The notes under the pieces are model-generated. The model saw nothing but the letters and a program-made list of their open reading frames with translations, was not told the DNA's origin and did no database searches. 64,000 nucleotides of DNA from an uncultured Gammaproteobacteria bacterium (GTDB taxonomy: Bacteria; Patescibacteriota; Patescibacteriia; Magasanikbacterales; GWA2-37-8), in contig CAZQUL010000001.1 in NCBI GenBank assembly GCA_964596525.1, positions 601,956 through 665,955 of the forward strand, in the 5' to 3' direction. Positions 1,325 to 34,713 of this stretch are shown here, in pieces (position 1 is the stretch's first letter; each line of letters opens with the position of its first letter). Made by a program: the position numbers and the translations under genes.

Positions 1325-2878
1325 CTATTTTATTTCAAAACCAATACTCTTGAGATTTTTGCTTATACGTTCCTCAAGAATTTTTGATTGTTTAAATTGA
1401 TCTGAAAGTTCGGCAGTGACCTTGGTCATTTTTTCCTCGAAAGTACCATCATCCTCTTCCACATAATCAGAACCAACGTAACGGCCTGGAGTTAGAACAA
1501 ATCCGCTCTTTTCAACTTCTTCAATCTTGGCCGCTTTACAAAAACCCTTAACATCCTCGTATTTGCCATTGATTGTTCGCCAAGCGTGATAAACGCCGGT
1601 GATCTTTTTTAAGTCATCGTCGGTAAGCTCGCGATTTTTGCGAGTGACCATTGTTCCCATTTTACGAGCATCAATAAAAAGAATCTCATCGTGACGATTA
1701 CGGAATTTGTGGTCGTAGCGATCACGAGAAACAAACCAAAGACACGCTGGAATTTGTGTCGTATAGAAAAGCTGGCTTGGGAGAGCGACTATACAGTCAA
1801 CTAAACCATTCTGAATAAGGCTCTTTCTGATCTCACCTTCGCCGGAAGTATTTGATGATAGTGATCCATTAGCCAAAACAAAACCGGCAATACCAGTGGG
1901 AGCAAGGTGATGGATCATGTGTTGAATCCAAGCGTAGTTTGCGTTGCCAGCTGATGGTGTGCCGTATTTCCAACGCACGTCATCTTTTAAGCGTTCGCCA
2001 CCCCAGTCGCTAATGTTGAACGGCGGATTCGCCAAAATAAAATCTGCTTTTAAATCTTTGTGTAGATCGTTATGGAAAGTGTCAGCGTTGTTCGGTCCGA
2101 GATTACCTTCAATGCCACGAATAGCAAGGTTCATCTTGCATAGTCTCCATGTGGTCGGATTTGATTCCTGACCGTAAATGGCCAAGTCATGAGTTTGACC
2201 GCCGTGTGCTTCCACGAATTTCTCACTCTGCACGAACATACCACCCGAACCGCAACAAGGATCGTAAACACGACCTTTGAACGGTTCGATCATTTCAACA
2301 AGAAGTTTGACGACAGACTGGGGAGTAAAAAATTCGCCTCCGCCTTTTCCTTCGGCTGATGCGAATCTACCCAAGAAGTATTCATAAACACGACCAAGCA
2401 CGTCTTTGCTTCGGCTGGCTTTATCGCCAAGACCAATCGTACTGATAAGATCAATCAATTCTCCGAGCCTGACTTTATCAAGATCGGGACGAGCGTAATT
2501 TTTGGCCAATACACCTTTAAGGCTTGGATTATCCTTCTCAATCGCAATCATGGCATCGTCAAGCATCTTGCCAATCTCCGGCTTTTTGGCGTTGGCCTTC
2601 AAATATTCCCAGCGAGATTCCTGTGGCACCCAAAATACACCCTCGGCAAGGTAAGCATCCTTGTCTTCTTCTTGGCCGGTGTAATAGTCTTTGTCGCTTT
2701 TAATTTCATTAAAAACTTCCTCAAAAGAGTCGGAAATATATTTGAGGAAAATCAAACCAAGAACCACGTGCTTATATTCAGCCGGGTCCATATTGTTTCG
2801 CATTTTATCAGCCGCCGACCAAAGGGTCTCTTCAAAACCTATATTCGCTCCATTGGTTTTTTTAGGTTGTTTTGCCAT
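1325..2878 (-). CDS. hsdM: Type I restriction-modification N6-adenine DNA methyltransferase HsdM
   Basis: 517 aa. The N-terminus ...[16 protein letters not shown] and the motifs DPCCGSGGM (SAM-binding) and ILANPPFN (catalytic NPPF) are canonical HsdM. Confidence 0.9.
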
Positions 2879-5332: not shown

Positions 5333-6352
5333 ATGTTCAGCAAATTTCAAGCATTGCCGAGTTACTTCGGCGGAAAAAGAAAATTGGTCAAGCACATTTT
5401 TAAACCCATCAAAAAGACCGAGGGAGTTTTTATTGATGCCTTCTTGGGAGGCGGATCAGTAAGCCTCTACGCCAAAGCCAAAGGATACAAAGTGATATCA
5501 AACGACATTGCCTTCCGGTCCGTAATTATCGGCCGAGCAATCATCGCCAACAATTCCGTAAAGCTTGAATCCGAGGATCTGGCCAGACTGTTCTTTGAAA
5601 CCAAGAATGACGGCTTTATAAAGAAAAACTACTGCCCGAAAGTATTCACCAGCAAAATATCTGACTTTTTAGATAACGCCTTTGCATCCGCCAACAAGGT
5701 GGAAAATGATACTAAACGATACCTTCTGCTCCATTTATTGATTAAGTTTATTCTTTCGTGCCGACAATTTGGAAAATTTACGCATACCCGGGACACGCTG
5801 GACTTGGAAGCCCGAAAATGGGAGTGGCCTCTCCGGTCCAAGTCTCATGCACCGAAAAACCTGCGGATGATCCAAAACCCGATGCTTACTTTGGAAAAAT
5901 TAAAAGATGAAATAAACCATGGCATCTTTGATAACCATCAGGATAACGAAATACACCAAAAGGACGTGTTTGATTTCCTCAAGACCGTTCAGGGTGATGT
6001 TGTTTATTTTGATCCTCCTTACCCTGGCTCTTCTGCCTATGAAGTCGAGTACGGGATTTTAGACAACATCCTCGCCAATAAAAAGCTGGATAACAAACCG
6101 AGCGGATTCTCCAACAACGATGCCGATGAATTCTTGGAAAAAATGTTTGAATCGGCCAAGCACATTCCGCAGTGGATCATTTCGCTCGGCCAAAATAAAG
6201 AGGACGTGGGAGTAAAGCCGGAAAAGCTGTTGGCGATGGTGCAAAAGTACCGCAAAGCCGAAGTGCAGATGATGGAACACAAGTGGAGCGTGGCCAACGC
6301 CGGAGGTCGAAACCAGAGCAACAACATCGAATACATGATCGTAACTTTATGA
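5333..6352 (+). CDS. Dam-like (D12 class) N6-adenine DNA methyltransferase, orphan, phage-encoded
   Basis: 339 aa. SYFGGKRK near the N-terminus, FIDAFLGGGSV (motif I) and YFDPPY (motif IV). Confidence 0.8.
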   Translation: MFSKFQALPSYFGGKRKLVKHIFKPIKKTEGVFIDAFLGGGSVSLYAKAKGYKVISNDIAFRSVIIGRAIIANNSVKLESEDLARLFFETKNDGFIKKNYCPKVFTSKISDFLDNAFASANKVENDTKRYLLLHLLIKFILSCRQFGKFTHTRDTLDLEARKWEWPLRSKSHAPKNLRMIQNPMLTLEKLKDEINHGIFDNHQDNEIHQKDVFDFLKTVQGDVVYFDPPYPGSSAYEVEYGILDNILANKKLDNKPSGFSNNDADEFLEKMFESAKHIPQWIISLGQNKEDVGVKPEKLLAMVQKYRKAEVQMMEHKWSVANAGGRNQSNNIEYMIVTL

Positions 6353-12401: not shown

Positions 12402-13625
12402 ATGCCTGAACCAACCCATATCATTGGTACGAGAAATACGCTGACGATCGAACAGTCACAGCGTATTCCCGATGTCGATGACAAAATATTCCTCCTTGAA
12501 CCAGGCGAATCACCGCTCACTGCTTTCTTGACTCAAATCGGAAAGATCGGAGACGGCGGAGGCAAGTTCAAGGGCATGGCTCTACAAAAGAGAGTCGTGT
12601 ACAACCCGGAATTCACTGAATACGAGGATTCATATTCCGGCGTCTGGGCCCAGATCAACAACGGTGCTGGTTACAACGACTCAGCTACTGAATTGGTCGT
12701 AGACAACCCGGGCGGTTCGATATTCACCAAGTACGATCTGATCAAAAACACTCGTACCGGTGAAATCATGCGTGTGACTGCGGTCAACTACTCCACTCAC
12801 ACGATCACCGTAACTCGAGGTGCCGGTGCCACGGCGGCCGCCGCCATTAACAATGACGACTGGCTCTTAATCATCGGTCCTGCTTTTGAGGAAGGATCAA
12901 AGTCTGGCGATTCCAACACGACCAAACTCGTGAAAGTCACCAACTACACCCAAATCTTCAAAACCAAGTTCGGTGTCACTGCAACCGAGAACGCTTCGAA
13001 GCTCTATCCGTCCGGTAGTCCGGGTGCGGATCTTAAATACTTGCGTGCCAAACACGGCATCGAGCAAGCCAAGAAAATCGAACGCGCGTATTGGTTCGGT
13101 GAAAAGAAAGAAGTCACCGGTCCCGATGGCAAGCCTCTCCGCATAACCGGAGGTGTCTTGGAAGCCATCATCTCTGCGGGCAACGTGCAAGATGAAGCAA
13201 GTTCCGCTTTAACCGAAGCAGAATTCCGCTCGTTCTTGCAGAACTATGCCTTTAAGTATGGCTCGTCTGAAAAATACTTCTTCTGCGGAAACACCGTACT
13301 CGGATATTTGGAAAGCTTTGCCACTGGCAAGCTATACCTGACTCCGAGCGACAAGACCTTCGGTGTGGAAGTGAGAAAGTATCAGTCTTCATTCGGAACG
13401 CTGAACATTGTCCGTCATCCGATGTTCGACAATCAGTATGCCGGTATGGGAGTCGTGCTTGATCTCTCAACTTTGAAGCATTGTCCTTTGAACGGTCGAG
13501 ACACCACGCTCGAAACCAACATTCAGGACAACGATGCTGATGAGGAGATGGATCAGTACAAAACCGAAGTCGGTCTACAGAGAGTCAACTTCGAGAAAAA
13601 CGCCTTGATCAAGGGCGTAGCTTAA
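12402..13625 (+). CDS. Putative major capsid protein
   Basis: 407 aa, positioned after the scaffold. The gene is free of internal stops and codon usage matches its neighbours. Confidence 0.5.
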   Translation: MPEPTHIIGTRNTLTIEQSQRIPDVDDKIFLLEPGESPLTAFLTQIGKIGDGGGKFKGMALQKRVVYNPEFTEYEDSYSGVWAQINNGAGYNDSATELVVDNPGGSIFTKYDLIKNTRTGEIMRVTAVNYSTHTITVTRGAGATAAAAINNDDWLLIIGPAFEEGSKSGDSNTTKLVKVTNYTQIFKTKFGVTATENASKLYPSGSPGADLKYLRAKHGIEQAKKIERAYWFGEKKEVTGPDGKPLRITGGVLEAIISAGNVQDEASSALTEAEFRSFLQNYAFKYGSSEKYFFCGNTVLGYLESFATGKLYLTPSDKTFGVEVRKYQSSFGTLNIVRHPMFDNQYAGMGVVLDLSTLKHCPLNGRDTTLETNIQDNDADEEMDQYKTEVGLQRVNFEKNALIKGVA

Positions 13626-13726
13626 GCCTGATCATCGGCTCTGCTCTGACTCGCTGGCTTTCAAGATTTGGAAGCCAGGAGTAAGGGTGGAGGCCATCAA
13701 TTAAAAACTTTAATCAACCAACTTAT

Positions 13727-14083
13727 ATGGCTAAATACAATTCCCACATCAAAAAACTGCGAATCGTTCTCAAGCCGGCCACGCCGGTATATGAGGGCGG
13801 AGTGAAAGTCGGCGATCAGCCGGGTGAATACGCCCAGTTTGAGGATGGCCAATTCGAAACTCAAGACGAAGCGATAATCGAAAAACTCGAATCGCTTGGA
13901 ACATTCAAGATTGACTTCTGGAGGGTCTCCGAGGAGACATCTCCGACCGAGGATACGACGGTGGACAAAGACTTGGCCAAGCTGACCAAGAAAGAACTCC
14001 AGACTCTGGCTAAGGATAAAAGTGTCGAGGTCGACGGCACCGAGAGCAAAGAGAGATTAATCGAGCTTTTGCTTAACAAATAA
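13727..14083 (+). CDS. Phage head-associated protein with C-terminal SAP/Rho-N-like motif
   Basis: 118 aa. The C-terminal LTKKELQTLAKDKSVEVDGTESKERLIELLL resembles the SAP / Rho N-terminal DNA-binding motif common in phage head proteins. Confidence 0.35.
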   Translation: MAKYNSHIKKLRIVLKPATPVYEGGVKVGDQPGEYAQFEDGQFETQDEAIIEKLESLGTFKIDFWRVSEETSPTEDTTVDKDLAKLTKKELQTLAKDKSVEVDGTESKERLIELLLNK

Positions 14084-14115
14084 AATCGGCCGAGGTCGAT
14101 AACCAATTCAAACTT

Positions 14116-14895
14116 ATGCCAATAGTATCTGCGGACTTAAAAGAATATAAGTCATCCAATGCCAACTCAGACGGCGGTGGAATTTCCGCCACTGAAGTCG
14201 TGGATAATACCGACAACAACTTATTCACCGACATCACCGGTGATGAAGCTTCTGCCGGAGGAACAGAATATCGAAAAGTATTCCGTAAAAATAACCACGG
14301 CTCGCTGTCTTGGCAAAACGTGGTCTCGTGGCTTCAAAGCCAGCCGACCAATTCAGCCTTATCATTCGGATTCGGCGTAGATCACGCCGATGATGCCGAC
14401 GGTGCTCAAGGAAACATGTCGGCTTTTTCCGGTAATGCGGTAGTGGCCGTAGTTTCCGACGGTGCCGACACCAGACAAGTGACGATTGTCGGCGAGGATG
14501 CATCAGGAAACAGGCAGACCGAAACCCTGACGTTAAACGGCACAACCGAAGTCGTGGGAGCTCTCACATTCTCCAAGCTTTATGGTGCTTATGTAAACTC
14601 ACTCTCCGCATCCCGTTCGGTGACGATAAGGCAAGGATCGGGAGGAACTTCAAGAGGCGTGATCGGAATAAACAAAAAGATCAGTTTTATCTGGTATGGC
14701 AAACGCTATTCCGGAGGTTCTCTCGTTAATGCCGAGGGTGGCGACATGGCCAGCAAAGCGACCGGACTAAAACACGGCGACATCGCTTCAGCTGGTAATT
14801 TCGGCGTGTGGTATCGCATGACTTGGCCTGCCGGTGCCGGTGCGGTAACGGCAACAACCACGCAAGTGAAATCCGAGGGCGACACTGCGGCCTAA
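14116..14895 (+). CDS. Hypothetical phage structural protein
   Basis: 259 aa, Gly/Ser/Thr-rich, sitting in the structural module. Confidence 0.3.
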   Translation: MPIVSADLKEYKSSNANSDGGGISATEVVDNTDNNLFTDITGDEASAGGTEYRKVFRKNNHGSLSWQNVVSWLQSQPTNSALSFGFGVDHADDADGAQGNMSAFSGNAVVAVVSDGADTRQVTIVGEDASGNRQTETLTLNGTTEVVGALTFSKLYGAYVNSLSASRSVTIRQGSGGTSRGVIGINKKISFIWYGKRYSGGSLVNAEGGDMASKATGLKHGDIASAGNFGVWYRMTWPAGAGAVTATTTQVKSEGDTAA

Positions 14896-14909
14896 AAAGT
14901 TTATAAGCT

Positions 14910-16463
14910 ATGGCCAAAACATTCCTAACAAAAAAGAATAATGCCAAAAGCACAATCACGGACAATCCGCTTCTTTCGGTAGCGACAACTTTGAATGTGC
15001 TGACTGGCGACGGCTCAAAATATCCGGATGCACCGTTCCATGCGACTTTGTATGCGAGCGATCCTGCAACCAGCGAGATCGTGAAAGTGACGGCAAAATC
15101 AACAGACCAATTCACGATCGAAAGAGCCAAAGAAAACACCACTGCCCAGGAATGGCCTCAAGGCACACGCCTTGAACTTTTGGTCACGGCCAAACTTTTT
15201 GACGACTTGCAGACAAGAACAGAGGTTGTGGTCGCCACTGACGGTTCTGGCGATTATAACTGCGACGGCACGGCCGATCAGACGGAAATAAACGAAGCGA
15301 TCAGTAACCTGCCTGCCGGTGGCGGAATCGTAAGAATCAAAAAAGGAACCTACAACCTGACCGGAATCATTGAAATCTTAAAAAGCAACGTTGTCTTGGA
15401 GGGCGAAGGCTCGGCGACCATATTGCGAGCCGCGAATGCCAGCAACTTGGGAGATATTGTGAGAGTCGGAAACGGAGGCACGACCAGCTACCAAAACATC
15501 ATCATCCGAAAATTCATGATTGACGGCAATCAATCCAATCAGACATCGGGTGCCAGCAGTCCGCTGGTGTTATGGGGTACGAGCTCTTACAAACACAGCC
15601 GAATCACTGTCGAGAACATGTGGCTGACCGGTGCAAGACAAGATTGTATGAAAGTGATTGCTGTTGAGGACAGCGTGATAAGGAATAATTTTATTTATTC
15701 CAATACCGGAGCCGCGATCGGATTGTTTACCACTTCTCAATACATCAGCATCACCGGAAACATTCTGACATCGAATTCCTACGGGGTATACGACAATGCC
15801 TGCAATTACTGCACCATGACCGGAAATGTCCTGCGAAGCAACGGCTACGGTTTCTATGTGACCAACGGCTGGCGAGAAAACATATCGGGCAACACGATAT
15901 TCACCAGTACCAACTACGGTGTGTACCTGATCGGAGCTCAAAGAGTGACCGTAACCGGAAATAATTTCTACGGCGATAACTGGAGCATCGTTGTCGGCAA
16001 CAGCTCAAACATCACCCGATACAACGTGATCACCGGAAATGTCATCGCTTGGCCTACGAGCCAAGGAATCGCTTTGTACTACGGAACAGGAACAACTGTG
16101 GGCAATGTAATCACCGGAAACCATATCTTCGGGGCCGGTGGACATGGAATATATCTCTACGCTTCCTCTTACAACACGATCACTGGCAACGCTATCGACA
16201 ATGCTTCAAGAACCACCACTAACACATCACACAGCATCTATCTCTCAGATAACGGTACGGTTTACTCAACCTACAACGTAATCTCATCAAATAATCTGCA
16301 AGCGACCCAAACCAATAAAGTCGCCTACCACATTCGAGAACAAGGTGTGAGCGATGATTATAACCTTGCGATCGGCAATATCTGCAAAGATGCGGTGACC
16401 GGTCAAATCGGCCTGCAAGGTGCCAACTCTGTGCGAGGTACTAACATCCCAGCTTCGGGCTAA
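14910..16463 (+). CDS. Tailspike / right-handed parallel beta-helix (pectate-lyase fold) protein
   Basis: 517 aa with many tandem degenerate 22-25-aa units (..ITGNxI..N..YG.Y..), typical of PbH1 beta-helix repeats found in phage depolymerase tailspikes. Confidence 0.7.
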   Translation: MAKTFLTKKNNAKSTITDNPLLSVATTLNVLTGDGSKYPDAPFHATLYASDPATSEIVKVTAKSTDQFTIERAKENTTAQEWPQGTRLELLVTAKLFDDLQTRTEVVVATDGSGDYNCDGTADQTEINEAISNLPAGGGIVRIKKGTYNLTGIIEILKSNVVLEGEGSATILRAANASNLGDIVRVGNGGTTSYQNIIIRKFMIDGNQSNQTSGASSPLVLWGTSSYKHSRITVENMWLTGARQDCMKVIAVEDSVIRNNFIYSNTGAAIGLFTTSQYISITGNILTSNSYGVYDNACNYCTMTGNVLRSNGYGFYVTNGWRENISGNTIFTSTNYGVYLIGAQRVTVTGNNFYGDNWSIVVGNSSNITRYNVITGNVIAWPTSQGIALYYGTGTTVGNVITGNHIFGAGGHGIYLYASSYNTITGNAIDNASRTTTNTSHSIYLSDNGTVYSTYNVISSNNLQATQTNKVAYHIREQGVSDDYNLAIGNICKDAVTGQIGLQGANSVRGTNIPASG

Positions 16464-16470
16464 AAGAATT

Positions 16471-17772
16471 ATGTTCAACGCTTATCAATTCAACACCGCA
16501 CAACTTAACAGCACTGCGACCAAACCAATCGCAAAAGTGATGAATTATGCGGTGGATGTTCTTGGACTGATAGCCCGACCGATCACTTATGTCTTCGACC
16601 AATTCGTCTCGGTTTTTAATCTGACAACCTACAAAGCTGACATCCTGAACCTGATAGAGAAAACCGAAACTTACGTATTGGATGTTTACTCGGTAATCAG
16701 TAAAGCCATCTTGTATCTGCTGGATGTTAAGAATTTGATCGCCAATACCATGACTTACTCATGGGATTTGCGACAGCTGATATCTAAAACATTCTCGTAT
16801 GTGTGGGACGTGATCGGCGGTGCGTTAATGGGAGTGATTTATAAGCTGGATATCAGACAGCTGGCCGAAAAACAAACAAGATATCTGCACGATATTTTGT
16901 TCACGCTTAGCAAAACACTGACATACCGCTTTGACTCGTTTCTTTCCGCAATCAGTCAGACCATCTACAAGCTGGATATCAGGAATCTTGCGACAAAGTT
17001 TCAATCTTACCTGATAGATATCGGCGGTGTAGTAGCGAGAATCCACAACTACAAACTCGACATCTTAAATCTTGCCGATAAAGCGACTAATTACATTCAC
17101 AATATCAGAGCCTTGATCGCAAAATACTGGACTTATGGTTTTGAGATCAGAAGTTTAATCGCCAAGACACAAAGATACATCCTCGACATTCTCAACACGA
17201 TCGGAAAGACAATCAACTATGCGTTGGACATCTTACTTCTCGCAGTAAAACAGTCGGCTTATATCCTCGACATCCGAAATTTAGCAAACAGACTGACAGG
17301 TTATCTATTCGATGTAAGAAATTTGGCCGAACGAATAACCGCCTACAAGCTGGATATCAAAATACTCGTCGCCAAGATTGAAAGATATCTGTGGGACATC
17401 AGAAGTTTGATCGCAAAAACAGGAACTTACGTGCTGGATGTTCTAAGCAAAATTGCCAAAGCTTGGATGTACGCATTCGATGTCCTGATCGGAATCGGAA
17501 AACAATGGTCATACGTTCTCGATATCAAAGGACTTATAGCAAAGGTTTGGACTTATCGCCTCCGCATTTGGAAAGTCATCGAGGGAGTAAAAATCGCCGT
17601 TGAGTTTTTATCAGCCAAGCTGTCGGTCCTGATGTTTTCGGCAAAAGAAACTCTTGGCCTTACCACGGCCAAATCAAACATAGAGGTCAAAACCGCACGG
17701 CAGGATCAGCAGATGCAGACTTCGAAAACCGACATCAATCTGCCAAGCAATAAAAAAGACATAAACCTATGA
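16471..17772 (+). CDS. Tandem-repeat fibre-like protein (about 22 copies of a 14-aa unit K-x3-Y-x-L-D-I-R-x-L-I-A)
   Basis: ATG at 16471. The translation shows a strictly periodic 14-residue (42-nt) repeat from about residue 45 to 360. Confidence 0.5.
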   Translation: MFNAYQFNTAQLNSTATKPIAKVMNYAVDVLGLIARPITYVFDQFVSVFNLTTYKADILNLIEKTETYVLDVYSVISKAILYLLDVKNLIANTMTYSWDLRQLISKTFSYVWDVIGGALMGVIYKLDIRQLAEKQTRYLHDILFTLSKTLTYRFDSFLSAISQTIYKLDIRNLATKFQSYLIDIGGVVARIHNYKLDILNLADKATNYIHNIRALIAKYWTYGFEIRSLIAKTQRYILDILNTIGKTINYALDILLLAVKQSAYILDIRNLANRLTGYLFDVRNLAERITAYKLDIKILVAKIERYLWDIRSLIAKTGTYVLDVLSKIAKAWMYAFDVLIGIGKQWSYVLDIKGLIAKVWTYRLRIWKVIEGVKIAVEFLSAKLSVLMFSAKETLGLTTAKSNIEVKTARQDQQMQTSKTDINLPSNKKDINL

Positions 17773-18083
17773 GCATAAAAATCGTACAAAACGACACCAG
17801 ACCTCCACTGGAATTCAGCCTGACTCAAGACGGCTCGCCGGTCGATCTAACCGGATGCACGGTCAAATTCTACATGAAAGATGCGACAACCGGATCAGTA
17901 AAGATCAATGGAAGTGCTTGTGTTATCACCGATGCCACCAAGGGCAAATGCCGATACAACTGGACGGCCTCGGACACCAATACGGTTGCGACTTACCTGG
18001 GAGAGGTTGAGGTCACTTTTCCCGACGGCAAAATCCAAACTGGATATAAGCAATTATCAATCATCATCCGTGATGACATTTAA
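17769..18083 (+). CDS. Small phage structural protein (Ig-like / baseplate-associated?)
   Basis: 104 aa. Start codon overlaps the stop of the previous gene. Confidence 0.3.
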   Translation: MSIKIVQNDTRPPLEFSLTQDGSPVDLTGCTVKFYMKDATTGSVKINGSACVITDATKGKCRYNWTASDTNTVATYLGEVEVTFPDGKIQTGYKQLSIIIRDDI

Positions 18084-18088
18084 AACCT

Positions 18089-18721
18089 ATGACCAGAGGC
18101 GAAATTAAAACTGCAATAAAGAACGAGGTCGATGATCAGACAATCGATTCGTCTTTGCTGAACACGTGGATACAAAGAGCCGATGAAAAGGTGCAAAGCT
18201 GGAGACCGCCGGAGGATCGGGATCAGACATTCGACTATTGGGATTATTTAAAAACCGAACAGCCGTTCACGACGGTTGCCAATCAGGAAAAATATCCGGT
18301 ACCGGAAAATTACCGAGCGTTTATCGAACTCAGAATAGGGACAGACAAAACACCTTATAAGCTGGTCGACTTCCGAGACAGAGACAAGTTTGATGACCAT
18401 GCGGTGTACATGCTGGGCGGATATTTCTATCCGGTGGCAACTCCGACAACCAACGGCAACGCCATGAGATTTGTCTTTGTCCGAATATCTGATGACTTTG
18501 CGTCCGACAATGACGAACCGGAAGTCGAAAAACTCTACCATCAAGCTTATGTCGAATGGGGCAAAAAAATGTACTACAACCAGCAGGGCGACACCGAACT
18601 GGAACGACAAGCCGATAATAACTTCGAGAGGGTGATGCTTGGAAAATGGCGTGATCAAGAGCTGGCCAGAATGGCCTCGGCTTCGGATCAAGCGGAAATT
18701 TCAAGAAGCAGTCTCGTATAA
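18089..18721 (+). CDS. Hypothetical phage protein
   Basis: 210 aa in the tail module. No motif recognised. Confidence 0.3.
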   Translation: MTRGEIKTAIKNEVDDQTIDSSLLNTWIQRADEKVQSWRPPEDRDQTFDYWDYLKTEQPFTTVANQEKYPVPENYRAFIELRIGTDKTPYKLVDFRDRDKFDDHAVYMLGGYFYPVATPTTNGNAMRFVFVRISDDFASDNDEPEVEKLYHQAYVEWGKKMYYNQQGDTELERQADNNFERVMLGKWRDQELARMASASDQAEISRSSLV

Positions 18722-18728
18722 AACAGCT

Positions 18729-20420
18729 ATGGCACTACCTAAGAAAATTTGGAAAACATCGCAATTCCATAAAGGCATCTCAAACCTTAATGCCGAGGGC
18801 ACCTTTTGGTTTTCCAACGGCCTGGAATTTGATCAGTATCCGCCATATTTGAAAGTGGCAAATAAATTTTTTAAGGAAAGCGACAGTGTCAGCGTGCCGG
18901 GACTCGATGAGCCGACCTATATGTGTTATTTCAATTACCGATACTACTGCGTCAATCACGATGACGGGAAAATATTTGAAAACGATTACAGCAGTTGGGT
19001 CCAAGTACACGACAGCGTGAACATCTGGGGAGGAAGCGGATTGTACGCCGATGACGACTACATGTACTACGCTGGCAGTACTTGGGTCGGACGCTTTGAT
19101 AAAAACACATGGGTGGACAACTGGCAGTCGTTCAACGTGAACACCGCCTTTGACGATGTTCCCATTACGAAGTTTTTGAAATTTATTTGCTTCGGAAATA
19201 AAAACTATCTGGCCACGTGGGACACCGGTGCCAGCGTATGGAATCCAAACAAACTGACCTTGCCGACCGGGTATGTGATTATGTGGCTCGCACCGCTTAC
19301 TGACTATCTGGTTATTTCCGCCCACCATCCGACATTCGGTTCGGCTTTATTTTTCTGGGACGGCTATTCGCAGACTTATAATCGAGTCCTGCAATTAACC
19401 CAAACGCAAAGTCTTGCCGGAGTGGTCGACAAGAATGTCCTGTACTTTCTCACAAGAGACGGCTGGATTTGCCGATTCAACGGGTCCGGAATTGAAAAAC
19501 TAAACCGTTTTCCGGAAATGAGCCACGAGGACTACATCTCACTTAAAGCCGGATGCATGAAAGTCTATCAGGGCACCATTCTCATAGCTAAAGGATCAAA
19601 CACTTACGATGTGAGTCGCAGAAACCAGTATTGCGGAATTTGGTGCTATAACCCAGCAACGAACGCCCTCTATTTCAAACACCGAGTATCAAGCGGTGCG
19701 GTTAACCATGTGACTCCCGGAGTGGCGGTCATGTACGGACTCTTTGTCGACAACAATACGATCCGGGTGATGTACAGCGACGGCAATAAATCCATCATCG
19801 ACGTGAATCACGAGACCGGAACATTCAGACCTTACGAATTCGGGGCGTATTGGATCAGTCCATTAATCGACAACGAACCGTATCTCCGCAAGAGGTGGAA
19901 ACAGTTTATTTTGAACTTTTTTAAGCCGATGCCAAACAGCAGTTTTGCCCGGTTCGAGATCAAATACAACATCACCGAGCAAAACATAAGAGATCAGGCG
20001 AAGTACGTGACTGGTGGTAGCTATGATTATTTTACGCTGTCATCGATACCCAGCTCATTTGAACTTGGTGATGAAGTGATTGTTCTCGCCGGTCCGGCCG
20101 CTGGACAGATACGACACATAAAAAGCATAGACACTGTGACCAAGACAATCTATCTGGACGAGAGTTTGTACTATTCCGGTGCCTCACAGGGATATTTGCA
20201 AGCCGGAGATTATGTGGCGATCACGCCTTTCAAAAGACTCGGAACAATTAAGGGAAACGAAAACCAAGGCAAGGTAAATAAAATGCTTCGGTTTAATGCG
20301 AGGTCGAAAAAAATTCAATTTAAGGTCGAGGTCTGGAGTAACTCCGGGTACTCTGGCGAATGGGACATGGGAGTAAAAGACGTATCAGCTGTTTTTGTCC
20401 CGGACAGAATAATCAAATAA
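18729..20420 (+). CDS. Hypothetical phage tail/baseplate protein
   Basis: Likely start is MALPKKIW at 18729. The product is Trp/Tyr-rich and probably beta-rich, about 563 aa. Confidence 0.35.
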   Translation: MALPKKIWKTSQFHKGISNLNAEGTFWFSNGLEFDQYPPYLKVANKFFKESDSVSVPGLDEPTYMCYFNYRYYCVNHDDGKIFENDYSSWVQVHDSVNIWGGSGLYADDDYMYYAGSTWVGRFDKNTWVDNWQSFNVNTAFDDVPITKFLKFICFGNKNYLATWDTGASVWNPNKLTLPTGYVIMWLAPLTDYLVISAHHPTFGSALFFWDGYSQTYNRVLQLTQTQSLAGVVDKNVLYFLTRDGWICRFNGSGIEKLNRFPEMSHEDYISLKAGCMKVYQGTILIAKGSNTYDVSRRNQYCGIWCYNPATNALYFKHRVSSGAVNHVTPGVAVMYGLFVDNNTIRVMYSDGNKSIIDVNHETGTFRPYEFGAYWISPLIDNEPYLRKRWKQFILNFFKPMPNSSFARFEIKYNITEQNIRDQAKYVTGGSYDYFTLSSIPSSFELGDEVIVLAGPAAGQIRHIKSIDTVTKTIYLDESLYYSGASQGYLQAGDYVAITPFKRLGTIKGNENQGKVNKMLRFNARSKKIQFKVEVWSNSGYSGEWDMGVKDVSAVFVPDRIIK

Positions 20421-20424
20421 ACAT

Positions 20425-20616
20425 ATGGCTAAATTCACTTTGGAAAAAATAGATACCGAAAATGTAAAAAAGATTGACACTCAGGAGTCAGTCTCAATCG
20501 TGAACGTTCCTGCTCTGCAAAAGCAGAAAGAGGAAATAGAAAAACAAATCACCGCTATGCAAAAACAACTCGTCCAAATAAATGAGGTCTTGGACGAATA
20601 TAAAAAACTTCCATAA
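20425..20616 (+). CDS. Small coiled-coil protein
   Basis: 63-aa ORF with the heptad-like stretch QKQKEEIEKQITAMQKQLVQINEVL. Confidence 0.25.
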   Translation: MAKFTLEKIDTENVKKIDTQESVSIVNVPALQKQKEEIEKQITAMQKQLVQINEVLDEYKKLP

Positions 20617-20618
20617 AC

Positions 20619-20825
20619 ATGAACGACACACCAAACAATAAAGATCAGCCGTTTGATCCGAATCTGGGTTCGATACTCAACCTGCTCAGAGATATTCCGG
20701 TGTTAAACACACCGCCGTCCGATACGCCAAGAACCCCGATCAGCTTCGCTTTGTACGATAACGGAAGTACGCGACGCTTTTATATCTTTTTCAACGGAGT
20801 GTGGAGGTACGCAACGCTAACTTAA
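20619..20825 (+). CDS. Hypothetical small protein
   Basis: 68-aa ORF packed tightly between neighbouring genes. Confidence 0.2.
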   Translation: MNDTPNNKDQPFDPNLGSILNLLRDIPVLNTPPSDTPRTPISFALYDNGSTRRFYIFFNGVWRYATLT

Positions 20826-20831
20826 AAAACT

Positions 20832-22172
20832 ATGTCGCAGATAACAATACAAAAAGGTCAGACCCTTTCGGGAATCGCCAAGCAATACGGCACCACCGTA
20901 AACGATCTTCTGAAAGCCAATCCGACTATCAAGAATCCGAACCTGATATACGCCGGTTCTGCCTTAAATTTGCCCGGATCGCCAACTTCACCCGTTGTTG
21001 CCCCTAAGGCGAGCGTTCCGAGCCCAAGTCCCACCGTGACACCTTCTAAACCCGTAATACCCCCTGTTGCCCAAAATTCGAGCCCAGGGACGAGCGGTGT
21101 TCCTGAAAAGACCACGCTGTATGGAACTGATGTGCCTTCCAACACCTCTTTGCTCAAACAATACCGGTCCGAACTAGGCCTTGATACTTCCTTAAAGAGC
21201 ATGCAAGACAGCCAGACATCCTATCTCGACACTCTCAAGAATTTACCAAAAAAGTCTGATATCTACCAACAGGAGAGAACGAAAAGAGGAATCGATACGA
21301 TGGAAAAGAATTTGCAAAGCTTGGATAACAGGCTGGCGACAATGGAGGAAGCGATCAATAGTTCGGAAAAGGATATCAGAGACAGAATTGTTGGAAGTGG
21401 CGGACTCGTCACCGAAAGCCAAACCCAAAGATTGGTCGCTTCGGAAAAGCAACCGCTTATAGACGAATACAGAAAACTGCTCAATGAAAGAAACAGGCTT
21501 GCAACTCAAATGGGCACTGCCGAGACATCGGCAAAAGAAATTGCCGGTATGCAATATGAGGATTCAACTTTGCCTCTTACTGTCGCCGAAAAAACTCTCG
21601 GATTCCAGAAAGACCAATACAGCGTACTTGGTAACCTGTTAAGCCAAGTATTCGGTGCCTCAGAAAAAGATGTTGCGAACCTGATTGATTCCGCCAAATA
21701 CGGAAAAGAGCAAGAAAAGAAAGAAGCTCAAGACGTTATCGATCGAGCCATAAAACTTGCCCAGCTGGCCAATGATACTCCAGCCGGAACGGTGCTTGAT
21801 ATTGCCGGAACGAAAGTCTTAGGTACAAAGAAATCATCAGGCAGTGGATCGGATGGCGGTTCGGCGAGCGATGTCGAAGCGTACGCATTGGAACTACTGA
21901 ACAACCCGAACTTCACAGCAAGCAATGTCCCTCAGAACATTCGAGCTCAAGTCCTTCAAAAACGAGATCAGATCATAGCTGAAGCAAATACTCAACAGCA
22001 AGCAGATGCGGAGGCCGCCCAAGCACTGAAAGCGAGCCAGCCAAAGATAACAGCCCAAGACTTCGGTGCTGGGGTCAAAGATGTATTCACTCAAAAGATT
22101 CCGAGCCTTGCGAAGTCCGGATACAACACAACCAAGAACTTCTTCAAGGGTCTATTCGGCATCGGAAATTAA
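20832..22172 (+). CDS. LysM-domain virion protein
   Basis: 446 aa. The N-terminal [28 protein letters not shown]...[10 protein letters not shown] is a LysM peptidoglycan-binding domain, followed by a Pro/Ser linker and a long coiled-coil region. Confidence 0.6.
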
Positions 22173-22178
22173 AACGCT

Positions 22179-24986
22179 ATGGCTTACATTAAAGACCTTA
22201 AAACTGGAAAGTATATAAACACCGGATCTGCACCGGCCTCTCCTCCACTCACAAGATCGGCACCCGGTACTGCCATTAAGTACCAAAAGAATGCCGAGGG
22301 AAAGTACGTAACGACTGAAGTTGAAAAACCGGCAGGAAAACCGAACGTAACAACAGTCGAAGGACTGCGAGACTTTGCATTGCAAAATAATGTGGATGTC
22401 TCCTCCACTCAACCAAAAGAATCGACGTTGCAGAAAATTCTCCACGTACTCAATACCGGAGGATATGCTGTCGGCGGTCTTATAAGCGGAAAAGGGATCA
22501 TGGCCGGAATCAAAGAACACATCCAGCCGTCTGAAGCCCTCGGCATTAAGAGCAAGGTCGGCGGATTCATTGCCGACATTCTGCTTGATCCGACAACTTA
22601 TCTAAGTTTCGGCTACGGTGCCGGTGCAAAGCTTGCGACAAAAGCCGGAACAGTAGTCCTCAGTAAGACCGGAACCTCACTGCTCAAGAAATCTATCTTG
22701 GAGCTTGGCGAGGAAGGTGCGAGAAAAATGCTTGCCAAAAAGGTGCTTGAGGAAGGTGGCGAAAAGTTTTTGGCCAAGGGCGGTCTGAAATTTGCCGGTA
22801 AACAGATACTTCCACGTTCGGCCGTGACTGCACCGTTTAAAGCCGCAGACTGGCTTGTGGAAAAGACTCCTGTGGTCGGGAAAATATATGAGGGTGCAAA
22901 AGACTTGGCCGGAAAAGCATTTGTACCATTCAAGAGCATCAAAGATCTGCCCGGACGAATTGGCGAGGAATACATCGATAAATTTTCACAATTCAACAAA
23001 GCAACACGGTCCGAGATTGGAAAGGCTGTTGAGGAGGCGTCTGCATTGGGAAATACTGCCCGAAAGGAACTCGGTAAAGATTCCGGTACGGCTGTCGGTC
23101 GCATGATTGAAGGAATGACCGAAGCTCCTGCAAAGATTGCCGGTGGAATTGATCAAGTCGCCACTGCTGGCAATAAAGTAATTGACGACATCATTGGCCA
23201 CATTCGAGGAGAGCATAAACGTTTCGCAAGCCTTGAAAAAGAGCGAGGACTTTTGGAATTTGAATTGCCGGATTATTTGCGTCACTACCTGACACCGGAG
23301 GGTCGCGACTTTCTACAAAAGAATTCGGATGTTGCTGAGGAGCTAACAAAGAAAATGAGAGTCAGCACTCCATTTGCGAAATCTCGAACGCTTGATGACA
23401 CGATCGTGAACATAAACAAATACTTCCGAAAGACTCACGGCGTGAAGTTGTTTGAACAAGATGCATTCAAAGCATTTGCCGGACGTAAAGCCGAGCACAT
23501 CAAAGCTGTGAATACTTACGATTTCCTAACAGACGTAGGAAAACAATTCGGCAAGCAAGGCGAAGTGATAACCAAAGAATTCAAACATCCAGTGACCGGA
23601 AAAATGGCCACAAAAGAAACAATTAAACCGATTTATGAAAACGGCATGCGGTACATTGAAAGCACCGTGCCTCAACTTAAAGGCGTGCTTCTGCCCGAAC
23701 AGATCGTGAAGCATGTCGAGGAAACTTATAAGGTGCTTACTCATGACGAGGCGACAAAGAAATTCCTCAAAGTTTATGATAAGGCACTCGGCTTCTGGAA
23801 AGGATCAGTCACCGGGTGGTTTCCTGCTTTTCATATCAGAAACTCCATTGGTGGAATTTTCAACAACTGGATTGCTGGCGTGACGAATCCTACCCGGTAC
23901 CTCCAAGGCGACCAAATTGCCCGGGGAGTTAAGGGAATGATCACGACCAAGCTGGGTACAAAGTATTCATACCAAGAAATAAAGGAGATTGCCGAAAAAC
24001 TGGGAGTCGTCGGTCAGCCCGGTTATTTGGATGTGATGCGTGAAGTCGAAAAAGATATTGGCAAAGGGCCGATATCAAAATTGATGGATCTGCCCAAAGG
24101 TGCGATGGAAATAACAGAAAACCGATTGAGATTGCCACTCTTTGTTGATCGACTGATTAAGGGTGACGCACCGGAACAAGCTGCGAAATCGGTATTCCAA
24201 TTCCACTTCGACTACGCTCCTGAAGCTCTTGCACCGTTTGAGCAAAACATTATGAAGCGACTGTTGCCATTTTACCGATGGACACGAGGCAATATACCGC
24301 TTCAGCTTGAACAGATGGTTAAACAGCCAGGCAAGTACGCCGCTCTTGGCAAATTCATTGATAACATCCAAGTCGACAAAGAAAAAGCCAAAGAGGAATT
24401 CCAATACCTACCGCCTTATATGCGAGAAGGACTACCGGTCCGACTTGGTGAGAAAGGTGGATTCTCACAATATCTTTATGGTCTTGGTCTGCCGGTCGAG
24501 GATATTAACCGACTTTACAAAGGAAGTCCTCAAAGAACCTTGGCCAGCTTTGTCGGTGAGTTATCGCCATTGCTTAAATATCCGATAGAAGCCGGAACCG
24601 GACAAAATCTGTTCACTGGCGAGCCAATTATCGAAAACAGCCGAGTGTATCCGTTCGTGAACGCAATACCCGGACTGCGAGACTGGCTGGAAGTAACCGA
24701 ACACAAAGACAAGAACGGCAACGTGAGTTATCGGGCTAATGCTTATAAGCTTCACTTCTTAAATACGGCATTGGGACGTTTCTACACGACCGCCGGTAAG
24801 CTTACAGACGATAAGACATCAGGAGCCGTGAAATTCCTATACGGTCTTGTTGGAGCAAAAGCTAAATCGGTCGATATGGAAAAGGAAAAGTTTTGGCGAG
24901 ATCAGGAAGTGAAAGATCGACTTGAACAAGCATTGGAAAGTAGAGGTCTGATAAACCAGTATGAGCGTGCATACGTTCCGAAATAA
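22179..24986 (+). CDS. Large virion protein (935 aa), possible internal/ejection protein
   Basis: Largest ORF of the structural module, immediately upstream of the lysis cassette. No tail tube, sheath or obvious tape-measure genes are present, which suggests a podovirus-like arrangement. Confidence 0.4.
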   Translation: MAYIKDLKTGKYINTGSAPASPPLTRSAPGTAIKYQKNAEGKYVTTEVEKPAGKPNVTTVEGLRDFALQNNVDVSSTQPKESTLQKILHVLNTGGYAVGGLISGKGIMAGIKEHIQPSEALGIKSKVGGFIADILLDPTTYLSFGYGAGAKLATKAGTVVLSKTGTSLLKKSILELGEEGARKMLAKKVLEEGGEKFLAKGGLKFAGKQILPRSAVTAPFKAADWLVEKTPVVGKIYEGAKDLAGKAFVPFKSIKDLPGRIGEEYIDKFSQFNKATRSEIGKAVEEASALGNTARKELGKDSGTAVGRMIEGMTEAPAKIAGGIDQVATAGNKVIDDIIGHIRGEHKRFASLEKERGLLEFELPDYLRHYLTPEGRDFLQKNSDVAEELTKKMRVSTPFAKSRTLDDTIVNINKYFRKTHGVKLFEQDAFKAFAGRKAEHIKAVNTYDFLTDVGKQFGKQGEVITKEFKHPVTGKMATKETIKPIYENGMRYIESTVPQLKGVLLPEQIVKHVEETYKVLTHDEATKKFLKVYDKALGFWKGSVTGWFPAFHIRNSIGGIFNNWIAGVTNPTRYLQGDQIARGVKGMITTKLGTKYSYQEIKEIAEKLGVVGQPGYLDVMREVEKDIGKGPISKLMDLPKGAMEITENRLRLPLFVDRLIKGDAPEQAAKSVFQFHFDYAPEALAPFEQNIMKRLLPFYRWTRGNIPLQLEQMVKQPGKYAALGKFIDNIQVDKEKAKEEFQYLPPYMREGLPVRLGEKGGFSQYLYGLGLPVEDINRLYKGSPQRTLASFVGELSPLLKYPIEAGTGQNLFTGEPIIENSRVYPFVNAIPGLRDWLEVTEHKDKNGNVSYRANAYKLHFLNTALGRFYTTAGKLTDDKTSGAVKFLYGLVGAKAKSVDMEKEKFWRDQEVKDRLEQALESRGLINQYERAYVPK

Positions 24987-28632: not shown

Positions 28633-29964
28633 TTATGGCTCATTAATCCTTATTCGCCCTTCCTTTACTTGAATTTTTGATTTAAAATAGCTCATTAATT
28701 CTCTTTTCTCTTCATTTGTTCCATCCCTTAGAATATACTTAACATAAGCCTTTAGATCTATTTCTTCATAGTTAGCCGGGGATTGGGCTATACCCAGCAC
28801 TCGCTTTTGAAGCTTATTTATTCTTTTAATTTCTTCCTCAAATTTATGCTGGATTCCTATGGAATTTAACTCTATCTGGTCTATAAGCTTTTCTAGCTGA
28901 TTAACGAGTTCCTCTTCCCTTAAATACTGATTCTTACAATGCCTATCTTTCGACCTCCCGCACCCATAATAAATATACTTCGCCACCGTTCCATCTTTCA
29001 GCTGCTTATACTTCTCCTCGGCAGAAATACCTGAGCCGCATAAACCGCACGCCATAAGCTTGGTAAAGGCAAACTCGTGACTCTGCCGTACGATATTATC
29101 CCGTTTAAGCTGTGCTTGAGCCAGATCAAACAATTCTTTAGTAATAATCGGCTCATGCTTCCCTTGATACCAATTGCCGGAGTTTTTAGGGTATTCAAAA
29201 ACCCCATAATAAAGGGGGTTTTGCAAGACGCGGAATATGTTTCCTAAAGCCAAGTTGTGATTACCGATTGTCTTGAAATTAAGCTCGAATTTCAGCCAAT
29301 GATATATTTTCCTTCCCGACCATTTCTCATAGGCCATCTTTTCAAAAATTTTCTTCACAATCGGTGCTCGATCTGGATCGATGATAATCTGGCATCTCTT
29401 GTCTATCAGCTTCTGGTTTAAATAGCCGACAGGCGCCAAGCCGGGCCATAAACCCATTTCTACCCGGGCCCTTAAGCCTCGTTTCACATTAATACCTCGA
29501 TTATCGTTCTCCAGTTTTGCCTGACTTCCTAAAATCATGAGAAGGAATTTTTCATTAGGAGAGTTGGTAAAACGCTGTCCATACGTACGGATCTCAGTTA
29601 AAACGTTCTGGTCTATGAGATCGACTATCTTTCCTAGATCGCCGGCGTTTCTAGAAATACGATCTGGTGCCCAGGTAAGTATGCCATTGTATTTTTGATG
29701 CTTGAGGTCTTCAATTATTTCGTTAAAAATCGGACGTTCACCCGCCTCTTTTGCTGAATGGGATTCACGTTTTATTTCTACTACCGTTAACCCTTCTCGC
29801 TCTGCTAGTTGCAACATCTCTTTTACTTGGGAATCAACGGAAAGGACCTGCCGCTCTTCGGACTCAGTACTTTTCCGAGCGTAGAGGCAGTAGCGTACTT
29901 GAGGCACGGCCGTTTGTTTTGCTGCCATCTGTTGAGTTATAGGTGCCATATAAGCTGCATTCAT
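28633..29964 (-). CDS. Large serine recombinase (putative prophage integrase)
   Basis: 443 aa. N-terminal resolvase domain (YARKSTESEERQVLSVDSQ), a central recombinase domain, and a Cys-rich zinc ribbon (CGLCGS...CGRSKDRHC). The true start may be an internal Met. Confidence 0.8.
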   Translation of the reverse strand: MNAAYMAPITQQMAAKQTAVPQVRYCLYARKSTESEERQVLSVDSQVKEMLQLAEREGLTVVEIKRESHSAKEAGERPIFNEIIEDLKHQKYNGILTWAPDRISRNAGDLGKIVDLIDQNVLTEIRTYGQRFTNSPNEKFLLMILGSQAKLENDNRGINVKRGLRARVEMGLWPGLAPVGYLNQKLIDKRCQIIIDPDRAPIVKKIFEKMAYEKWSGRKIYHWLKFELNFKTIGNHNLALGNIFRVLQNPLYYGVFEYPKNSGNWYQGKHEPIITKELFDLAQAQLKRDNIVRQSHEFAFTKLMACGLCGSGISAEEKYKQLKDGTVAKYIYYGCGRSKDRHCKNQYLREEELVNQLEKLIDQIELNSIGIQHKFEEEIKRINKLQKRVLGIAQSPANYEEIDLKAYVKYILRDGTNEEKRELMSYFKSKIQVKEGRIRINEP

Positions 29965-31009: not shown

Positions 31010-32323
31010 TTATTTAATCTTTACCGGTTTTTTACCCGTTTCCTTTTCCCAGCGTCGTAAAATGACTTGGGTATAAACCGGAGACTTTTCCATAATATAA
31101 CAACGGCGTTTCATCCGTACCGCGCTTATAAGCGTTGACCCACTTCCACCGAATGGTTCAACAATCAAATCATTGCGTTTTGTAAGCACCTTGATGTAGG
31201 GGATAAGGATTTCAACCGGCTTCGTACCGAAAATAATCCCCTGGCCGGAAGACTTCTCATCCGCCGCTTTATAGTCAATAAAATCCGTGGGGCAGATCTT
31301 CTTGCCTTTTTCGTATGATTCCCAGTGCGGCTTGCCGCTGATCGCGTAGAGCGCGGTTTCATACTCGTTTTCCAAGAATTCGCCTTCATCCTCGGTCCGA
31401 GGAGTAATGCCTTCCGTTCCCCCGACAATGGCGATATCATGCTTGTTGAAGAACTTGTTGCTGGCAGCAAAACCCTGCATCCGGTTCGGCACGTGCCAGA
31501 CGATCATGTTCCTCACCTTCCAGTGCTTTTCCATCTCGTTCCAAATAGTCCGGATATTCTTCCAGTTCTCGTATACGATGATGGAGAAATTTTCCTTGGC
31601 GACTTTCCGGATATTGCCCATCCATTTTTCGGTAAAGTCCGGCGGGAGCTCGTCAGTCTCTAAATATCTCCGGTTTTTCTTTGAGCCAAAGCCTCCGTCT
31701 TTGTCCTTCGCTCCCTTGAGATAATCGAGGATGTAGGGCGGATCAGTAAAACACATGTCGGCTTTTTGACCGTTCATAAGCTTAAGCATGTCCTCAGGAA
31801 TCGTAGAGTCTCCGCAAAGAATACGTGATCCGTCTAATTCGTAAATGTCACCTTTTTGCACGGTAACGGTCTGGATATCGATCTTCTCCAACTCTTTCTT
31901 TAAATCAAATTGTTCTTCGTGAATCTCCTGTGGAAAGATATTGTCGAGCTCTTCGCTATCGAAACCGACATCAGACAGGAACGATTCATCGAATTGCGCG
32001 AGCAAGTCGAGATCAAATTCACCGGTATTCTTGTTAAGGCGCAGATTCAGCTTTTTCTCCTTGGAAAGGTCAGGAATATTCACGTAAACGACTGGTATGG
32101 TGACTAGCCCAAGCTCTTTTGCGACTTCGGCTCTGAAATGGCCGCCGATAATGACGTTCAAGCGCTCAGGGGCGCTGTTGCAGATAATGGGGTCAACGAG
32201 GCCGAACTGCTGGATCGATTTTTTAAGCTGCTCGGATTGTTCTTTGGAATGCTTGCGCGGGTTGTATTCCGCGGCGCGCAGATTGTTGATAGGTACTTCG
32301 ATGATACTTATTTTGGGGTTCAT
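31010..32323 (-). CDS. ParB-N-domain / DNA methyltransferase fusion (N6/N4 class)
   Basis: 437 aa. N-terminal ParB-like nuclease domain (…YNPRKH…GGHFRAEVAKELG), then CFTDPPY (motif IV) and EPFGGSGSTLISA (motif I). Confidence 0.8.
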   Translation of the reverse strand: MNPKISIIEVPINNLRAAEYNPRKHSKEQSEQLKKSIQQFGLVDPIICNSAPERLNVIIGGHFRAEVAKELGLVTIPVVYVNIPDLSKEKKLNLRLNKNTGEFDLDLLAQFDESFLSDVGFDSEELDNIFPQEIHEEQFDLKKELEKIDIQTVTVQKGDIYELDGSRILCGDSTIPEDMLKLMNGQKADMCFTDPPYILDYLKGAKDKDGGFGSKKNRRYLETDELPPDFTEKWMGNIRKVAKENFSIIVYENWKNIRTIWNEMEKHWKVRNMIVWHVPNRMQGFAASNKFFNKHDIAIVGGTEGITPRTEDEGEFLENEYETALYAISGKPHWESYEKGKKICPTDFIDYKAADEKSSGQGIIFGTKPVEILIPYIKVLTKRNDLIVEPFGGSGSTLISAVRMKRRCYIMEKSPVYTQVILRRWEKETGKKPVKIK

Positions 32324-34710: not shown

Positions 34711-34713
34711 TAT

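Follow-up and report, generated by a model that had tools for sequence, protein, structure and literature searches.

The repeat gene and its locus

The DNA analyzed here, 64,000 nucleotides (nt) of contig CAZQUL010000001.1 and hereafter the window, is a stretch of bacterial chromosome carrying an integrated SU10-like podovirus prophage. Within the structural module of this prophage lies a gene, here termed the repeat gene, whose product is built largely from 14-residue units and most plausibly represents a fibre shaft. An earlier annotation made from the letters alone (the sequence-only reading) had placed it in a tail-fibre locus, directly after a beta-helix protein, and both points hold. Residues 9-123 of that upstream neighbor, a 517-aa protein of the Beta_helix/NosD type, match tail-fibre PHROGs and the "Putative tail fiber protein" of PDB entry 8jov (E = 1.7e-7), which is present in that structure as 18 chains; on account of this N terminus, "tail-fibre locus" is a fair description. 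The repeat gene thus has the location expected of a tail-fibre component, between a beta-helix protein with a tail-fibre N terminus and the gene for the head-to-tail adaptor (Table 1).

The open reading frame (ORF) is uninterrupted. A GTG at 16420 lengthens only the mechanical ORF, to 450 aa; the ATG at 16471 gives the 433-aa protein and is the Met of the motif MFN[AS]YQFN at which all orthologs begin. The stop codon shares 4 nt (ATGA) with the start of the gene for a 104-aa BppU_N-like protein, an overlap that suggests coupled expression of the two genes.

Table 1. Coordinates in the window of the repeat gene, its segments and the other prophage genes discussed
Feature	Position	Strand	Evidence or remark
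Repeat-protein gene	16471..17772	+	Intact ORF, 433 aa plus stop
N-terminal 21 residues, MFNAYQFNTAQLNSTATKPIA	16471..16533	+	Strong ortholog conservation; putative docking segment
Array of 25 x 14-residue (42-nt) units, aa 22-371	16534..17583	+	Predicted beta-solenoid rod
C-terminal 62 residues, conserved	17584..17769	+	Ortholog conservation
SU10-type major capsid protein	12402..13625	+	Pfam SU10_MCP, E = 1.4e-41
259-aa phrog_13135 protein, conserved module companion	14116..14895	+	phrog_13135, E = 4e-14
517-aa beta-helix fibre/spike protein, directly upstream	14910..16463	+	Pfam Beta_helix/NosD, E = 3e-25
104-aa BppU_N-like/phrog_1084 protein	17769..18083	+	Pfam BppU_N, E = 6e-12; phrog_1084, E = 6e-13
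SU10-type head-to-tail adaptor	18089..18721	+	Pfam SU10_adaptor, E = 2.7e-16
Serine recombinase	28633..29964	-	

A repeat maintained at the protein level

The array consists of 25 consecutive units that cover 1050 nt with no indel at all. The sequence-only reading had rightly recognized the array, its consensus and its 42-nt period but had counted about 22 units over about 950 nt. The units conform to K-T-x-T-Y-x-[LF]-D-[IV]-[RL]-x-L-[AIV]-x, with Tyr at position 5 in every unit, Asp at position 8 in 22 and Lys or Arg at position 1 in 21; over the 1073 units of 42 orthologs (see below) the same positions are occupied in 100%, 95% and 89% of cases, respectively. The periodicity is no misreading: protein identity at a lag of 14 residues is 0.327, against 0.075 ± 0.014 in 2000 shuffles (z = 18), and control proteins from the same window reach a lag identity of at most 0.106, while DNA identity at a lag of 42 nt is 0.431 against 0.257 (z = 12.6). 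In this respect the array is more regular than most fibre repeats.

The copies themselves are far from the near-perfect ones first described. Unit-to-unit protein identity averages 33%, the best DNA copies within the array share 60 to 80% identity over 20 to 55 nt, and Tandem Repeats Finder, run on 15000-19000, reported no DNA tandem repeat because the copies are too diverged. Resolved by codon position, DNA identity at a lag of 42 nt is 0.47 at the first, 0.50 at the second and 0.32 at the third position; since the periodicity is nearly absent at third positions, the repeat is maintained by selection on the protein and not by recent duplication.

Beyond the array, the last 36 residues (17662-17769) fall into four 9-residue units, TTAKSNIEV, KTARQDQQM, QTSKTDINL and PSNKKDINL, that are kept in all orthologs; across the orthologs, residue classes autocorrelate at 0.61 for a lag of 9 and at 0.50 for a lag of 18, with the background near 0.2. 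They may constitute a separate small beta tip or docking element.

Orthologs, copy number and divergence

Contig scans yielded 42 distinct complete orthologs. The majority (n = 31) have, like the window protein, 433 aa and 25 units; the others have 489 aa and 29 units (n = 6), 447 aa and 26 units (n = 4) or 363 aa and 20 units (n = 1). All length differences are exact multiples of 14 residues; most of them map to about units 4-8, within the N-terminal third of the array. The 25-unit form recurs in three sequence clusters that are 54 to 63% identical to each other, whereas each variant length is restricted to its own clade. The suggestion that the shaft varies in length by repeat number is thereby borne out in part of its sense: to judge from these sequences, rod length changes by whole units, yet rarely.

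Relatives of the repeat gene are carried on contigs of metagenome-assembled genomes (MAGs) assigned to Parcubacteria, Paceibacterota, Saccharibacteria, Kaiserbacteria and Nomurabacteria, from which it follows that the hosts are bacteria of the candidate phyla radiation (CPR), or Patescibacteria. Further relatives of the gene are on contigs of 0.27 to 0.76 Mb with a "Gammaproteobacteria" label, and the prophage was seen on MAG contigs of 0.09 to 0.76 Mb titled "uncultured Gammaproteobacteria" (L034, L036, L039, L043 and L049), a label that is probably wrong. Full-length orthologs are missing from both large protein collections, where only a chimeric 79-aa fragment (P0005) was encountered, despite the dozens of nucleotide contigs that encode them; word-index searches of a 5.8-billion-protein database gave no match, and an exact look-up of the window protein was likewise empty.

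The repeat gene evolves under purifying selection (dN/dS of 0.10 to 0.16), with nonsynonymous change (pN) 3 to 8 times higher in the array than in the termini. Within the unit, positions 2, 3, 4, 6 and 14 are the freest (dN/dS of 0.2 to 0.5) and positions 1, 5 and 8 are frozen; a search for positive selection at each unit position found none, dN/dS remaining below 1 everywhere and at or below 0.5. In every locus compared it is nevertheless the most diverged gene of the module, with 47 to 63% protein identity versus 77 to 97% for its neighbors. The contrast is sharp between L034 and L048, in which nucleotide identity is 99.2% for the capsid gene, 96.8% for the 259-aa gene, 68.0% for the repeat gene (25 versus 29 units) and 78% for the BppU_N-like gene, so that a recombination junction can be placed near the end of the beta-helix gene. 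Similarly, the window and L034 have a repeat allele in common (85%), whereas L010, with equally similar flanks, has another (63%). The sequence-only reading was therefore right that variation is focused in this gene. Its route, as read from these comparisons, is by substitutions at unit positions predicted to be exposed and exchange of allele classes and not by copy-number slippage. A tail-fibre component would be expected to diverge faster than the other genes of the module and to be exchanged as a mosaic segment, as this gene does, and such behavior is consistent with an exposed, host-facing element.

A wider group of 14-residue arrays in phages

A profile of eight three-unit segments of the window protein, searched against 1.84 billion representative proteins at a threshold of E = 1e-3, recovered 31 proteins. 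All except P0005 bear 14-residue arrays, exemplified by KTNTLKFDIRQQVE, KTSTLRYDVRNAIA, KDLTAQWDILNLVN and DTFTHKWNIRNLIA, with the consensus K-[TDS]-x-[TQ]-x-x-[WFY]-[DN]-[IV]-x-x-L-[VIA]-x; position 7 is aromatic in 97% of the units, and occasional units run to 17 or 18 residues. In several arrays almost all units contain a Pro at a constant position (position 5 in P0019; position 6 in P0010 and P0006). The arrays are mostly C terminal to globular domains of LamG-like appearance, for which the sole Pfam match is Laminin_G_3 in P0007 at 26.4 bits, just below the cutoff of 27.6. In P0006 and P0024 the array is instead N terminal to a domain that, by reading and not by profile, resembles J-like tail-tip proteins; a Pfam scan of P0006 returned no family. 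Wherever the context is readable, the genes are on phage contigs.

One member is P0016, a 234-aa protein with seven units that have Tyr at position 5 (E = 6e-16 to the window protein). It is encoded by L053, an unrelated, tube-bearing phage contig of 32.6 kb in which the product of 4627-5136 matches the N-terminal 86 aa of the 259-aa phrog_13135 protein (51% identity, E = 4e-27) and the product of the gene directly downstream of P0016 is homologous to the 104-aa protein (E = 5e-7). The protein between the first two, where the window has a beta-helix, is LamG-like by eye, its matches being to PHROGs only. The recurrence of this trio around a different intervening protein suggests that the phrog_13135 protein, the rod and the phrog_1084 protein form a conserved scaffold that bears exchangeable binding proteins.

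The window protein gave only subthreshold noise in Pfam, PHROGs and NCBIfam (the only Pfam hit being Syndetin_C, at 23 bits versus a cutoff of 38.4), and PDB sequence searches with the protein, an ortholog profile and a repeat profile found no match even at E = 10. For the repeat unit as a family, Pfam, NCBIfam and PDB have no entry, and PHROGs offers only a phiNIT1-type family. Source names of the relatives say nothing beyond "hypothetical protein," and a search of the literature on 14-residue phage fibre repeats or CPR prophage fibres found nothing relevant. Matches to Klebsiella phages in a tblastn search of cultured phages (E of about 1 to 8, including a tape-measure gene) were rejected as noise. 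A weak match of the P0011 array to orf378 of phage phiNIT1 (phrog_19577, "minor head protein") was judged to be compositional; it involves a heptad coiled coil with a 7-residue unit in a baseplate module. As an observation on that phage, orf378 (L052, Bacillus phage phiNIT1, 71023-72159) lies between baseplate genes resembling A511 gp104 and gp105 and combines a heptad coiled coil with a globular C terminus, and its annotation as a minor head protein looks wrong.

Predicted fold of the array

For AlphaFold we assembled an alignment of 38 rows, all verified to be in unit phase: units 14-25 and units 2-13 of the window protein, plus 36 stretches of array from the wider group. Twelve of the 25 units were modeled, as a monomer. 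The model is nearly all strand, with a mean pLDDT of 73 and a pTM of 0.57 (four of five models at 70 to 73), and aligns over 158 to 163 of its 168 residues with real single-chain beta-helices. It has the hallmarks of a beta-solenoid, that is, one coil per repeat and predicted strands stacked along the rod axis. Two properties of the sequence point the same way: the beta-like 2.33-residue harmonic of hydrophobicity (4.42) exceeds the 3.5-residue one (3.72), and the Chou-Fasman propensity is 1.13 for beta versus 1.03 for alpha. On this evidence, the beta-solenoid is the best-supported fold of the array, and this half of the fold suggestion made in the sequence-only reading is upheld; the other half, a helical shaft of two heptads per unit, conflicts with the Pro-bearing arrays discussed below.

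A putative fibre rod and its alternatives

Taken together, these observations lead us to favor, with a probability of roughly 0.55, an exposed structural rod of the prophage fibre apparatus in which the 14-residue units are coils of a narrow beta-solenoid and the conserved ends serve for docking. Each unit would form one coil of a two-sheet parallel solenoid, with stacked ladders of Tyr5, Leu/Phe7, Ile/Val9, Leu12 and Ala/Ile/Val13 and charged ladders of Asp8 and Lys1, leaving positions 2, 3, 6, 10, 11 and 14 predicted to face outward. The standard rise of a beta-solenoid is about 4.8 Å per coil; at that rise 25 coils would make the rod about 12 nm long, and the range of 20 to 29 coils would correspond to about 10 to 14 nm. 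The N-terminal 21 and C-terminal 62 residues may dock the rod to conserved partners. The beta-helix fibre and the adaptor are candidates, as are the phrog_13135 protein and the probably cotranslated BppU_N-like protein. The apparatus would probably be attached at the adaptor or neck, with the rod surface free to diverge and to be swapped between phage backbones as allele classes. The near-constant number of coils suggests a length constrained by the need to match either a partner protein or the host envelope.

Several points weigh against this picture. Confidence in the model is only moderate, and it covers 12 units as a monomer; moreover, since the units within an array evolve in concert, columns i and i+14 will covary under any fold, an effect that may bias AlphaFold toward stacking. 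Mutual information over 875 three-unit windows of orthologous units detected no coupling at a lag of 14, only local couplings at positions 10-12, and Foldseek searches of PDB and BFVD returned nothing significant. The 3.5-residue harmonic is itself strong, and an AlphaFold model from the single sequence was helical, although at a pLDDT of 44 it was discarded as uninformative. Presence in the virion and oligomeric state are inferred; conserved termini around a variable middle differ from the usual tail-fibre arrangement of a variable C-terminal tip; and in L053 the module has head genes on one side and head-tail connector genes on the other, which makes a neck or head site possible.

The main alternative, to which we accord a rather low but real probability, is an intertwined homotrimeric beta shaft of the triple beta-helix or triple beta-spiral type, for which the monomeric solenoid would be a prediction artefact. 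Phage fibres are usually trimers, and the triple beta-spirals of adenovirus and reovirus use shaft repeats of about 15 residues. The limited pLDDT of the monomer model would fit such a shaft, as would the mostly hydrophobic residues at outward-facing positions 6 and 13, a sign that these positions may be buried in an oligomer, and the turn-like enrichment of Asn, Gly and Ser at position 11. Against it, the unit has no conserved Gly or Pro turn residue (over the 1073 units Gly reaches 19% at position 11, and Pro is almost absent), and the monomer model superimposes on single-chain beta-helices over nearly its whole length.

Somewhat less probable still is a fibre or decoration associated with the head or neck, like the phi29 head fibre or the T4 whiskers, with the Ig-like 104-aa protein as its base. 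The repeat gene does sit between the capsid and adaptor genes, the L053 module is upstream of an HK97-gp10-like connector gene and a tail-tube gene, and an Ig-like gene that follows the capsid gene in SU10 has been likened to the base of the phi29 head fibre (PMC9509320). In SU10, however, the genes for the adaptor and long tail fibres also come directly after the capsid gene (PMC9509320), the N terminus of the upstream neighbor in the window has a match in a tail fibre of solved structure that occurs in 18 copies, and proteins of the J-like tail-tip type carry related arrays, all of which argue for the tail.

We consider an alpha-helical coiled coil, in which the unit would be two heptads of a helical fibre or ruler-like protein about 50 nm long, to be distinctly unlikely. 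Its appeal is arithmetical (14 = 2 x 7), with Ile9, Leu12, position 2 and Tyr5 falling on an a/d stripe, and it could draw on the strong 3.5-residue harmonic, the helical single-sequence model and the weak resemblance of P0011 to the heptads of phiNIT1 orf378. But that resemblance is to a 7-residue rather than a 14-residue unit, the model turns all beta once the alignment is supplied, beta propensity exceeds alpha propensity, and the conserved Leu/Phe/Trp of position 7, the most conserved hydrophobic or aromatic position, would land on the exposed heptad position f. The Pro in nearly every unit of homologous arrays excludes a continuous helix. Nor does the protein behave like a tape-measure-type ruler, given the podovirus-like module, the beta model and a sole tape-measure match at E = 7.

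Finally, the proposal of a contingency locus, a slippage hotspot in which slipped-strand mispairing often alters repeat number and drives host-range switching, can draw on the exact-multiple lengths of relatives but is contradicted by the diverged DNA copies without a Tandem Repeats Finder call, the nearly aperiodic third codon positions and the rare, clade-bound length changes against a 25-unit form kept in 31 of 42 orthologs, which rule it out.

Beyond the solenoid rod as such, we offer a broader proposal that is clearly more tentative: the K-T-x-T-(Y)-x-(aromatic/Leu)-D-[IV] unit might define an undescribed and widespread class of thin, one-coil-per-unit solenoid rods in uncultivated phages. 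Here the rod would be the exchangeable host-recognition element, its variable face binding a polymeric surface receptor and its roughly 25 coils (about 12 nm) acting as a ruler for the host envelope or a partner. Fibre shafts rank among the least annotated parts of phage genomes, and because the unit has no entry in Pfam, NCBIfam, PHROGs (with a function) or PDB, a signature for the rod would help to locate receptor-binding modules in phages known from metagenomes, among them the little-known phages of the CPR. If the fold is correct, a single-chain solenoid of 14 residues per coil with a near-fixed, countable number of coils would be a simple natural model of how rod length is set, and rods of chosen length could be engineered on it as a scaffold. 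The combination of an invariant scaffold, free surface positions and allele exchange between prophages that are otherwise nearly identical would likewise provide a tractable system for fibre diversification that preserves shape.

Other genes of the prophage and host

The structural module runs in the order capsid, 118-aa protein, 259-aa phrog_13135 protein, 517-aa Beta_helix/NosD protein, repeat protein, 104-aa protein, adaptor, 563-aa protein and LysM protein, an order kept in 14 of 14 loci examined. No cultured phage has a capsid protein more than 31% identical to that of the prophage, and a match to the SU10 portal in the module is weak. The module, in which none of the annotated structural genes encodes a tail tube, is podovirus-like. 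After a putative nozzle gene come a LysM-domain protein with a long coiled-coil-like region (20832-22172) and a 935-aa protein without matches (22179-24986), both candidates for ejection or cell-wall-acting proteins. A counterpart of the 935-aa protein gave no match to the structural genes of the window at 12402-22172, a comparison that excluded the 935-aa protein itself.

Three DNA methyltransferase genes were observed in and around the prophage, at 1325-2878 (minus strand), 5333-6352 and 31010-32323 (minus strand); the types represented are a type I HsdM, a D12-class adenine methylase and a ParB_N-fused N6/N4 methylase. Host genes beyond the recombinase include a SAVED and SMODS pair, an LD-carboxypeptidase, pieces of alaS, uvrA, uvrC and the gene for ribosomal protein L25. 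The adjacent genes for a SAVED-domain protein and a SMODS nucleotidyltransferase (33340-35724) resemble a CBASS-type antiphage system and lie about 3.4 kb past the serine recombinase gene, near the presumed end of the prophage. Two ORFs, 41365-42537 and 44086-45378, both match tRNA-synt_2c, the core of class II alanyl-tRNA synthetase (E = 6e-39 and 1e-101), and may reflect a duplicated or split alaS in a small host genome.

Comparison with known systems

At the level of the locus, the comparison is with SU10 (Kuravirus), with which the prophage has in common the type of capsid and adaptor and, weakly, portal, as well as the clustering of fibre genes beside the capsid and adaptor genes. It differs in gene order, and the SU10 fibres gp12, gp13 and gp16 have no counterpart of the window repeat. 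Among cultured phages, a 14-residue array is also present at the C terminus of gp47, a J-like tail protein of Aeromonas phage BUCT551 (Casjensviridae), as about 22 copies of DLTAPYGLRPGVIA. The period is the same, the protein belongs to a tail tip, and P0011 matches it by tblastn (E = 1e-9). Its units, however, have two Pro and two Gly each and no K..Y..D-I signature, and it gives no direct match to the window protein, so that homology of the two arrays is uncertain.

Among viral shafts of other kinds, the triple beta-spirals of adenovirus fibre and reovirus sigma1 are likewise built from a short, regular repeat in which hydrophobic residues alternate ahead of a turn, but they need an intertwined trimer and the conserved turn Gly or Pro that is wanting here. 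Phage tailspikes of the pectate-lyase type have coils of about 22 or more residues, three sheets and a catalytic groove, in contrast to the regular 14-residue coil predicted for the rod, and the repeat protein is not a member of Pfam Beta_helix (PF13229). The head of YadA, a left-handed parallel beta-roll of trimeric autotransporter adhesins with 14-residue NSVAIG-S repeats, offers a parallel in its architecture, being a trimeric surface adhesin rod with one coil per 14 residues. Its motif of small residues and Gly is nonetheless absent from the window protein, which has no Pfam Hep_Hag/YadA hit and does not belong with YadA, and the best matches of the repeat model are right-handed, the handedness being read from those matches and not from the model itself.

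Also among the closest known systems are narrow right-handed parallel beta-helices, namely, the SufB/SufD core domain, bactofilin and the C-terminal domain of CAP. These are at most 10% identical to the repeat protein and without sequence relationship to it, do not have a strict 14-residue repeat and serve cellular functions, not those of virion fibres. The structure type is already known; what is new here is an unannotated 14-residue shaft repeat of the solenoid type in a CPR prophage.

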